Shown here one piece after another: positions 43,566 through 45,455 of a stretch of DNA of 64,000 nucleotides. The position numbers were made by a program, and so were the translations under genes. The DNA comes from Escherichia phage vB_EcoM_JNE01. The notes beneath the pieces were generated by a model. The model did not search any database. It was not told where the DNA came from and saw only the letters and a program-made list of their open reading frames with translations. Where the stretch lies: the sequence record OR670491. One strand, written 5' to 3'. Within the stretch, counting starts at the first letter, position 1; every line of letters begins with the position of its first letter.

Positions 43566-45455
43566 ATGAAACCAATCAGAGTACTGTCACTTTTTAATGG
43601 AATGAGTGTGGGATACATGGCACTTCAAGATGCTGGTATCCCAGTTGAAACGTATTACTCTTCCGAAATTGATAAGTATGCTATTGCTGAATCCCAAGAG
43701 AATTTCCCTGATATTATCCAACTAGGTGACGTTACCAAGTGGAAGGATTGGGATATTGAATGGGATAAGATTGACCTCCTTATGGGAGGGTTCCCGTGTT
43801 TCCCTGAAGGAACAATGATAATGACCGACAAAGGTCACAAAGATATTAAAGACATTCAAATTGGTGACATGGTACTAACTCATACTGGTCAATATCATCC
43901 AGTATTGAGTACAGGTGTTAAAAAAGCCCCTACGCGTATTATTTCAGGGCAAGGACATTTACCTATTGAATGTACTGATAATCACCCATTTTATTCTAGA
44001 AAAATGTCGTCTAGCTGGAATAACAGCATTAGACAATATGAACGTTCCTTCACTGAACCTGAGTGGATTGAGGCACACGAATTAACATCTGAACATTTTC
44101 TTTGTAATGTTAAATCAATTGAATCAGGTAAATCAACAAAAGATGAAAAATTCTGGTATTTTATGGGCCGCTTTATGGGTGATGGATGGACTTATAAAGT
44201 AAAGCGAAATAATAGAAAGAATAGTTACCAGTATAGAGTTTTCATCTGTTGTGCACATGATGAATTTGATGAATTGATTTCATGTTTTGAAGGTATGAAC
44301 ATGAAATATAATTATGTCAAAGAAAGAACATCATATAAATTTTATATATGTTCAAAAGAACTAGTTGAATTCTGTGAACAGATGGGTAAAGGTGCATCTA
44401 ATAAGAAAGTTCATCCTAATTTATTCAATGAATGTGTACAGAACCAGAAAGCATTCATTGATGGATATTTTGACGCAGATGGTCATGTTGATAGTAATTG
44501 TTATAAATTCACAACAACATCAATAGACTGCGTATTAGGTGTCCAACAATTAATAATGAATGTTTACGGAAGACATTCCAACATAAGCCTTACAGAACCA
44601 GAAAAAACTAAAGTTATTGAAGGACGAATTGTAAACCAAAAACCGTATTATGTTTTATCATATAAAAAAGACCAACCTAAAAAAGAGGAAGCTTTTTATG
44701 AAGAAAATTATTCATGGGTTAAAGGTGTAAAAACGAGTATTTCTACTGGTGAATGGAAAACTGTATATAATTTTGAAGTTGCCGTTGACAATACTTATAC
44801 CGCAAATAACATAGTTGTTCACAATTGTCAAGCCTGGTCGGTTGCAGGTAAACAGGGTGGAATAAATGATCCAAGAGGAATGTTGTTCCATACAATGGTT
44901 GATATTTACGAGCACATCAAAAGTCTCAATCCAGACTTGAAAGTACTGTTCGAGAATGTTAAAATGAAAGACGATTTCAAGCAATACATCAACAGTATTC
45001 TTGATATGACACCAGTACTGATAAATTCCCATAATTACACGCCTCACTTCAGACAACGTTATTATTGGTACAGTTCTGATAAATTACTAACTCCACCTGC
45101 ATTAATGAATGCACCTGTGCTTCAGGACATTCTGGATGATGGTTGGTATACTGACCGTACCGCTTCGTACTGTATAGATGCCAACTACTTTAAGGGTGGT
45201 GATTGTAATCAATACTTCAATAAGTCCAGGCGACAATTGGTGTTCAAGAACCCTGATATCAATCGTCAGTACTTACTTGAGAATGGTAAAAGAAACATTG
45301 ACTACCGTCACTTAAGTGTAGTAGAATGTTGTAAATTGCAAGGTGTACCAACTGATTATTTCAAGTTATCTAGTAATACACAGGCATATAAAATGCTAGG
45401 GAACGGTTGGACAATGCCAGTCATTTCACATTTGCTTAAAGAGATATTCTTTTAA
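43566..45455 (+). CDS. C5-cytosine DNA methyltransferase interrupted by an intein
   Basis: Extein motifs: SLFNGMSVG (motif I), GGFP...CQAWSVAGK (motif IV PCQ restored after splicing), LFENV (motif VI), FRQRYYW; 629 aa precursor. Confidence 0.8.
   Translation: [629 protein letters not shown]
43797..44825 (+). mobile_element. intein with LAGLIDADG homing endonuclease domain
   Basis: 343 aa; starts [13 protein letters not shown], ends VVHN followed by extein Cys; two LAGLIDADG-like motifs [10 protein letters not shown] and [12 protein letters not shown]. Confidence 0.75.

Follow-up and report, generated by a model that had tools for sequence, protein, structure and literature searches.

A LAGLIDADG intein inserted before the predicted catalytic cysteine of a C5-cytosine DNA methyltransferase in the jumbo coliphage vB_EcoM_JNE01

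An interrupted methyltransferase gene

Escherichia phage vB_EcoM_JNE01 (JNE01; 355.6 kb) is a jumbo coliphage of the genus Asteriusvirus, and one of its genes encodes a C5-cytosine DNA methyltransferase interrupted by an intein. We analysed this gene within a 64,000-nucleotide (nt) stretch of record OR670491 (the window, to which all coordinates refer), where it forms an intact open reading frame (ORF) of 629 amino acid residues (aa) plus stop. The encoded protein is identical to WOL22890.1, labelled 'hypothetical protein', and the words intein, methyltransferase, methylase, homing and endonuclease are all absent from the genome announcement. The insert (aa 78-420, 343 aa, 43797..44825) starts with CFPEGTMIM, ends with NNIVVHN and is flanked by ...LLMGGFP and CQAWSVAGK..., the two parts of C5-methyltransferase motif IV. 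An original prediction, made from the letters of the window, had read motif IV as GGFP, a 343-aa insert (CFPEGTMIM...VVHN) and CQAWSVAGK, and all these details are present in the sequence. The features of the gene are the following:

43566..45455, + strand: precursor ORF, C5-cytosine methyltransferase interrupted by an intein (ORF, profile matches, identity to WOL22890.1)
43566..43796, + strand: N-extein, 77 aa, with motif I (LFNGMSVG, 43590-43613), motif II (SSEID, 43659-43673) and GGFP (43785-43796)
43797..44825, + strand: intein of class-1 type with embedded LAGLIDADG homing endonuclease, 343 aa (profiles, alignment, fold)
43797..43814, + strand: intein block A, CFPEGT; Cys1 (43797-43799) is the predicted nucleophile of the N-S acyl shift
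43974..43991, + strand: intein block B, TDNHPF, with the Thr and His of TxxH
44160..44189 (aa 199-208), + strand: LAGLIDADG motif 1 (block C), catalytic Asp kept
44454..44486 (aa 297-307), + strand: LAGLIDADG motif 2 (block E), catalytic Asp kept
44763..44825, + strand: intein blocks F and G, ending NNIVVHN, with the terminal His-Asn at 44820-44825
44826..45455, + strand: C-extein, 209 aa plus stop; Cys+1 (44826-44828) is the predicted splicing nucleophile and catalytic Cys of PCQ
44946-44960, 45048-45068, 45306-45350 and 45399-45422, + strand: C-extein motifs VI (ENV), VIII (RxR), IX and X (GNGW)

The DNA around the gene matches 35 records of 121Q/PBECO4-like phages, and the opened records that carry a taxonomy line belong to the genus Asteriusvirus. 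In Turkey5, the closest intein-less relative, the flanks are 97% identical and the methyltransferase gene has 861 bp without the insert. The alignment of Turkey5 DNA with window positions 41501-47500 contains a single large gap, of 1029 bp, exactly at 43797..44825, and the 286-aa Turkey5 protein corresponds to the predicted spliced product, contiguous across the junction. The motif-IV region of Turkey5 reads ...GGGTTTCCA/TGTCAAGCATGG..., the slash marking here and below the point of insertion. The boundaries of the insert are therefore exact to the nucleotide, and the spliced product occurs naturally. Uninterrupted 861-bp methyltransferase genes are also present in 121Q, G17, Ecwhy_1 and Turkey3. 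The content of guanine plus cytosine is 32% in the intein, against 41% in the N-extein and 38% in the C-extein.

Removal of the insert in silico yields a 286-aa protein, for which the match to Pfam DNA_methylase (PF00145) improves from 3.6e-31 to 2.2e-37 (129.6 bits, cut-off 22). This match is broken into three stretches in the precursor; after removal, the stretch spanning the junction (aa 4-135) is contiguous. The score of NCBIfam TIGR00675 ("dcm") likewise rises from 101.2 to 121.3 bits (cut-off 100.65). The rise of PF00145 and the position of the Turkey5 gap bear out the expectation that removing the insert restores a canonical motif IV.

Host enzyme and dual-role cysteine

The spliced sequence holds the C5-methyltransferase motifs I, II, IV, VI, VIII, IX and X in order, motif I being a variant (F-N-G-M-S-V-G). 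Among solved structures, its best match is to the catalytic domains of mammalian DNMT3A and DNMT3B (7e-22, residues 2-281), with M.HaeIII (over aa 6-204) and M.HhaI (over aa 4-149) at lower ranks. The alignment to DNMT3A/3B and the ordered motifs on both sides of the insert confirm that the flanking sequences are methyltransferase motifs. Judging from the sequence, the host is a compact, Dnmt3-like C5-cytosine DNA methyltransferase, whose 286-aa chain has its N-terminus close to that of DNMT3A.

Motif IV pairs with GGSPCNDLS of DNMT3A, the cysteine of PCQ aligning with that of PCN. The cysteine of the motif-IV Pro-Cys pair (Cys81 in M.HhaI, Cys710 in DNMT3A) is established as the nucleophile on cytosine C6. 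Since the PCQ cysteine aligns with this known nucleophile, the residue at +1 of the intein would serve both as splicing nucleophile and as catalytic cysteine of the methyltransferase, and the proposal that the +1 residue is the enzyme's own catalytic cysteine is upheld by the alignment to DNMT3A motif IV. An unspliced precursor should be inactive, because 343 residues part the two halves of the catalytic loop, and it can reasonably be inferred that enzyme activity would depend on splicing.

Anatomy and fold of the intein

The residues required for splicing are in place in the insert: Cys78, T137-D-N-H140, H419-N420 and, at +1, C421. In a set of 153 homologues with both junctions readable (described below), Cys1, the terminal Asn and the +1 Cys are each kept in 152 and the penultimate His in 147. 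The intein hallmarks proposed at the outset (a first Cys, a His-Asn end and a +1 Cys) are all present and near-universal in this set. In the homologue alignment, the His of block B is invariant and the Thr nearly so. The two LAGLIDADG-like blocks noted at the same time were also found, at aa 199-208 and 297-307. They contain FMGRFMGDG and YFDADG, and both keep the catalytic Asp; in the family of LAGLIDADG endonucleases, the acidic residue of the motif binds the catalytic metal. The homologue alignment has a nearly invariant D-G at both motifs and a nearly invariant G-R..D-G in motif 1. Profile matches above cut-off were obtained for Pfam LAGLIDADG_3 around motif 2 (aa 294-357; 30.9 bits, cut-off 22.5) and for Pfam Hint_2 on the N-terminal part (33.7 bits, cut-off 28.4); the match to Pfam Hom_end_hint is weak and under its cut-off.

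Sequence comparison with solved structures places the gp41-1 intein closest to the splicing part, and PI-PkoII and PI-PfuI closest to the endonuclease part. We built an AlphaFold2 model of the precursor from a 13-sequence alignment, in which the intein has a predicted local distance difference test (pLDDT) score of about 80-94. The best matches of the model in the PDB are the TliVMA intein (7qsu, E 3e-17), PI-SceI, PI-PfuI and PI-PkoII, and I-DmoI for the endonuclease core (Foldseek, template modelling score about 0.65 normalized to target, E 1e-7). The modelled secondary structure of aa 194-343 fits a two-fold pseudo-symmetric alpha-beta-beta-alpha-beta-beta-alpha fold. PI-SceI (yeast VMA1), TliVMA, PI-PfuI and PI-PkoII, the best structural matches with E values from 3e-17 to 2e-09, consist, like the JNE01 intein, of a Hint domain with an inserted double-motif LAGLIDADG endonuclease, although their sequence identity to it is just 10-18% and their hosts are an ATPase, a ribonucleotide reductase and a polymerase, archaeal or eukaryotic.

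Distribution of inteins at the motif-IV site

Within Asteriusvirus, the same gene carries an intein at the same insertion point (GGFP/C...VVHN/CQ) in TH47 (MT446416), A4 (ON286972, gene A4_120), UE-S1 (ON568341, gene UES1_076) and ph0011 (OP557969), where it is annotated as cytosine methyltransferase only or is unannotated. The protein identity of these inteins to that of JNE01 is 95% (TH47), 77% (A4) and 54% (UE-S1 and ph0011). The first 66 and the last 26 alignment columns, in which the splicing blocks lie, are 83-100% identical in protein sequence among the Asteriusvirus inteins, whereas the endonuclease core of UE-S1 and ph0011 is strongly diverged (36-49% protein identity). The JNE01 allele differs from these four in being a recombinant, with a TH47-type intein in Turkey5-type exteins.

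A much wider distribution was observed when the intein was used as query in an exhaustive search of 1.84 billion cluster representatives, which found 5599 homologues, 742 of them at E <= 1e-30; a word-indexed protein search had given just 14 matches, badly underestimating the family. The best 150 of the 5599 homologues, together with earlier matches, provided 153 proteins with two readable junctions. The same P/C site of motif IV is occupied in 137 of these 153 top-scoring homologues (90%), in the context ...P/C(intein)...N/C-x-x-x-S, and positions +1/+2 hold CQ in 103 proteins and CT in 26. A Pfam scan of a systematic sample (every other listed match) detected PF00145 in 62 of 65 homologues, and the homologue consensus has the full C5 motif set on both sides of the intein. 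The JNE01 intein is one member of a very large family at a standard site, in line with a general rule by which the inteins of nucleic-acid enzymes occupy the best conserved motifs of the active site.

Examples outside Asteriusvirus include Propionibacterium phage B22 gp50 (GGSP/C...VVHN/CQDLS) and Lactobacillus phage Nyseid (FGFP/C...IVHN/CQDIS), as well as Mannheimia phage 587AP2, a human-gut phage contig and Paenibacillus cisolokensis (P0012). These same-site inteins of other phages and bacteria are about 28-48% identical to that of JNE01 and most have a LAGLIDADG domain. Their hosts differ from the JNE01 enzyme in belonging to other methyltransferase subfamilies, 450-1400 aa long and with different regions for target recognition; Q, T, S, P and G all occur at +2, and in a few of the inteins the last two residues are FN, YN or KN in place of HN.

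Some members of the family deserve separate mention. In Mannheimia phage vB_MhS_587AP2 (1264-3584), the frame that carries the motif-IV intein (GGTP/CFTAGH...AVVHN/CQS) stops soon after the junction, and the remaining methyltransferase is annotated as a separate overlapping coding sequence, followed by an HNH homing endonuclease gene; a frameshift, decay of the allele or an error in sequencing could each account for this broken C-extein. P0002, a metagenomic protein of 551 aa with exteins 64% identical to those in the window, has at the same site an intein of 264 aa from which LAGLIDADG motif 1 and the acidic residues of the second motif have disappeared, both splicing ends being kept, which looks like the endonuclease-decay stage of a homing cycle. 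Homologous inteins in P0004, P0006, P0013 and P0007 also stand before a cysteine, in the contexts ASPD/C...VHN/CSSYS and SSPP/C...VHN/CPTHS; these proteins have no precomputed PF00145 match and may represent divergent methyltransferase-like families that carry the same element.

Inteins in methylases of actinophages have been reported. The mycobacteriophage DNMT-1 and DNMT-2 inteins reside in N6/N4 (amino) methyltransferases rather than in C5 enzymes (Kelley et al., 2016, PMC5050341), papers in Genes (2023 and 2025) cover actinophage methylase insertions, and a 2025 survey lists DNA methylase C-5 (IPR001525) among the intein-invaded actinophage proteins (bioRxiv 10.1101/2025.01.02.630785). The survey is one of actinobacteriophages only, with coliphages outside its scope, and its section 6 and the passages matching our terms do not describe the insertion point or the dual-role cysteine (bioRxiv 10.1101/2025.01.02.630785). 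Our literature search returned no paper describing an intein at the catalytic cysteine of a C5 methyltransferase, or testing the splicing of such a precursor. The original prediction had implied that the insertion site was new, and this part of it does not hold, given the 137 of 153 top homologues with the same P/C site, the 62 of 65 sampled proteins with PF00145, the label DNA-cytosine methylase/intein/homing endonuclease that IMG already gives to one homologue, and the listing of C-5 methylases in the survey.

The mycobacteriophage Pacc40 protein gp60 offers a further comparison: its host is also a phage DNA methylase and its LAGLIDADG intein is homologous to that of JNE01 (about 28% identity, 1e-34), but the junction (..MHV/C...VKN/CPLQ) is different and involves no catalytic cysteine. 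We noticed that intein-containing mycobacteriophage genes are labelled DNA methylase, sometimes helicase, in GenBank, and that their RefSeq counterparts (NC_011287, NC_026588, NC_031262, NC_028946 and others) bear the label 'anaerobic ribonucleoside reductase large subunit'. Because NrdD of Lactococcus phages 949, AM4 and P1048 carries homologous inteins, the reductase label looks like an annotation carried over via the intein that these genes have in common.

Selection, mobility and co-conversion

The ratio of non-synonymous to synonymous substitutions (dN/dS) of the JNE01 intein is 0.08 against TH47 (with dS, the synonymous divergence, of 0.25) and 0.07 against A4, and that of the exteins is 0.04-0.15. 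The intein is under strong purifying selection. It is found in 4 of roughly 37 related deposited genomes, the majority of the relatives being without insert.

The history of the intein and that of its host gene do not agree. The JNE01 intein is TH47-like (95% protein identity), and the exteins in which it sits are, outside a tract around the junction, 99% identical to those of the intein-less Turkey5 and about 80-84% identical to those of every intein-bearing relative. Compared with Turkey5, the window has 28 differences in the 105 extein nt around the junction and 8 in the other 756 (Fisher p = 1e-20), and 13 of the 19 changed codons are synonymous. Where Turkey5 and TH47 differ, the window follows Turkey5 through extein nt 216 (43781), mostly TH47 at extein nt 228-333 (43793..44927) and Turkey5 again from extein nt 378 (44972). 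The tract thus delimited matches the haplotype of the intein-bearing relatives:

43793..44927, + strand: recombinant patch against a Turkey5-like background, comprising the intein plus flanks and interpreted as a homing co-conversion tract

This tract is asymmetric: it extends into the 5' flank by at least 4 bp (43793-43796) and into the 3' flank by about 102 bp (44826-44927). Sporadic distribution, discordance between intein and host gene, and co-conversion of the flanks, which make up the footprint of homing, were all found. The haplotype pattern of the flanks indicates a co-conversion tract, the footprint of gene conversion initiated by an endonuclease, and the intein appears to have homed recently in the JNE01 lineage.

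Recombination has also taken place between other intein variants. In A4 and UE-S1, the last 78 nt (26 codons) of the intein are 100% identical and the endonuclease cores 54% identical at the DNA level, which indicates recombination between intein variants within Asteriusvirus and mosaic inteins. This pair, with 0 differences in the last 78 nt, is the only one with a clear recombination junction. We also considered a swap of the endonuclease domain as the origin of the divergence of UE-S1 and ph0011, and it is inseparable from old divergence with conserved splicing ends, because synonymous sites are saturated over the whole intein between the window and UE-S1 (pS, synonymous differences per synonymous site, 0.45-1.05).

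Expression signals and genomic surroundings

The letters upstream of the gene contain candidate expression signals:

43520..43559, + strand: possible expression signals, read from the letters

An extended -10-like element (TGcTATAAT) lies at 43520-43528, 38 nt before the methyltransferase start codon, and a putative Shine-Dalgarno sequence (AGGA, 43556-43559) is spaced 6 nt from the ATG. No recognizable -35 element precedes TGcTATAAT, which the consensus promoter scan did not list, and the promoter and terminator scan around the gene gave a number of sites no higher than in shuffled sequence.

The window holds a module of nucleotide metabolism and replication (4246-8523, 13045-14385, 19432-22880 and 32274-33407), with genes for the large (772 aa) and small subunits of ribonucleotide reductase, a PIF1/UvrD-like helicase, a TelA-like protein and topoisomerase II-type subunits (GyrB-like and GyrA/ParC-like). 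Genes of the ribonucleotide reductase, helicase and topoisomerase types are frequent intein hosts. No further intein was detected in ten larger ORFs of the window, among them the ribonucleotide reductase subunits, the helicase and the two topoisomerase subunits.

Proposed mechanism and alternative explanations

We propose that the insert is, very probably, a class-1 LAGLIDADG intein, active and recently mobile, in which the +1 nucleophile is at the same time the catalytic cysteine of the methyltransferase. After translation, the Pro77-Cys78 bond would be attacked by Cys78, the thiol of Cys421 would receive the N-extein, cyclization of Asn420 would release the intein and an S-to-N shift would rebuild the Pro-Cys peptide bond. 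The resulting enzyme of 286 aa would have its PCQ motif intact and its catalytic thiol free. The released intein is probably a site-specific endonuclease, which would cut the intein-less motif-IV coding sequence of a co-infecting relative; repair from the intein-bearing copy would then spread the element. The proposal builds on the anatomy, the exact boundaries, the folds, the purifying selection, the sporadic distribution and the flanking co-conversion tract, which the comparisons establish.

Several observations weigh against this proposal or limit it. Splicing, endonuclease cleavage and methylation are themselves deduced from sequence. The score of Pfam Intein_splicing is 19-22 bits, under its cut-off of 35.8, and that of TIGR01443 (intein_Cterm) is 12, under 15.6. 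Block F (VYNF...DNTY) has Asn at two positions where many inteins carry the assisting Asp (F:4) and His (F:13), as seen by alignment to the gp41-1 intein (LIDIEVSGNHLF), and the splicing chemistry may consequently differ in detail. In the structural model, the methyltransferase part has low confidence (C-extein pLDDT 35-60). With regard to mobility, 6 of the changed codons in the comparison with Turkey5 are non-synonymous, TH47 is not the actual donor (the intein dS is 0.25, and a few sites inside the tract are recipient-like), and selection for compatibility of extein and intein could account for part of the link between the flank haplotype and the intein.

The deviation of block F was considered further. 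Many inteins have the assisting Asp and His, but neither is obligatory, so the deviation lowers certainty on the detail of the mechanism and not on membership in the inteins. Since the homologue consensus (VYNxEVExDNSY) has the same residues as the JNE01 intein, we treat the variant as a trait of the lineage and not as damage; because block F deviates, 'splices' is kept here as a prediction.

A more ambitious picture joins three elements: the motif-IV Pro/Cys site would be a major hotspot undescribed in the literature searched, in jumbo coliphages a redox or metal switch would delay methylation up to the moment of splicing, and the released endonuclease would convert co-infecting relatives. 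Taken as a whole, we regard it as improbable.

It is very unlikely that the intein is dead or decaying and no longer splices, with the methyltransferase knocked out and on its way to a pseudogene. Such a state would agree with the sub-threshold scores of Intein_splicing and intein_Cterm and with the non-canonical block F, and decay does occur in this family, as in P0002 with its eroded LAGLIDADG motifs and in Mannheimia phage 587AP2 with its C-extein out of frame. Nevertheless, the 629-codon frame of JNE01 is intact, the four splicing nucleophile and assisting positions are kept, the block F variant is that of the homologue consensus, and the exteins, conversion tract apart, share 99% identity with the gene of the intein-less Turkey5. 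A dead gene, moreover, would not hold dN/dS values of 0.07-0.08 in the intein and at most 0.15 in the exteins.

More doubtful again is conditional splicing, in which redox state (through a Cys78-Cys421 disulfide), metal ions or DNA would make the intein a post-translational switch that times the methyltransferase during infection. The circumstantial case for it is that, with the +1 nucleophile being the catalytic cysteine, activity would be strictly coupled to splicing, and that the P/C site is kept across at least 137 diverged clusters; conditional splicing is documented for other inteins (e.g., zinc and DnaB). Nothing in the sequence demands a switch, however; insertion in the active site is explained by conservation of the homing site alone, and the sporadic presence of the intein (about 4 of 37 close relatives) is an argument that the phage can do without it. 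The chance that the insert is instead a Hint-type autoprocessing domain of the bacterial intein-like kind, which cleaves without ligating the two halves, is practically negligible: there are weak matches to the Hint and PT-HINT profiles, but the full intein set is present (Cys1, TxxH, His-Asn, +1 Cys), the insert splits a single enzyme domain that relatives have contiguous, the closest folds are true inteins with endonucleases, and the loss of the enzyme that cleavage without ligation would bring about conflicts with the purifying selection on both exteins. Pseudogenization and a cleavage-only Hint domain were both rejected on selection and anatomy.

Implications

The JNE01 gene now merits annotation as a DNA cytosine methyltransferase that contains an intein. 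The finding leaves the understanding of how inteins work unchanged. It draws attention to the motif-IV Pro/Cys site, at which at least 137 diverged protein clusters carry an intein and which is nonetheless barely described in print. Because the +1 nucleophile would be the catalytic thiol, motif-IV inteins might serve to place methyltransferases under the control of splicing. With Turkey5 as a near-isogenic intein-less partner and a mapped asymmetric tract, a phage cross is easy to design, and JNE01 is a clear case from nature of an intein that appears to have homed recently between jumbo phages.

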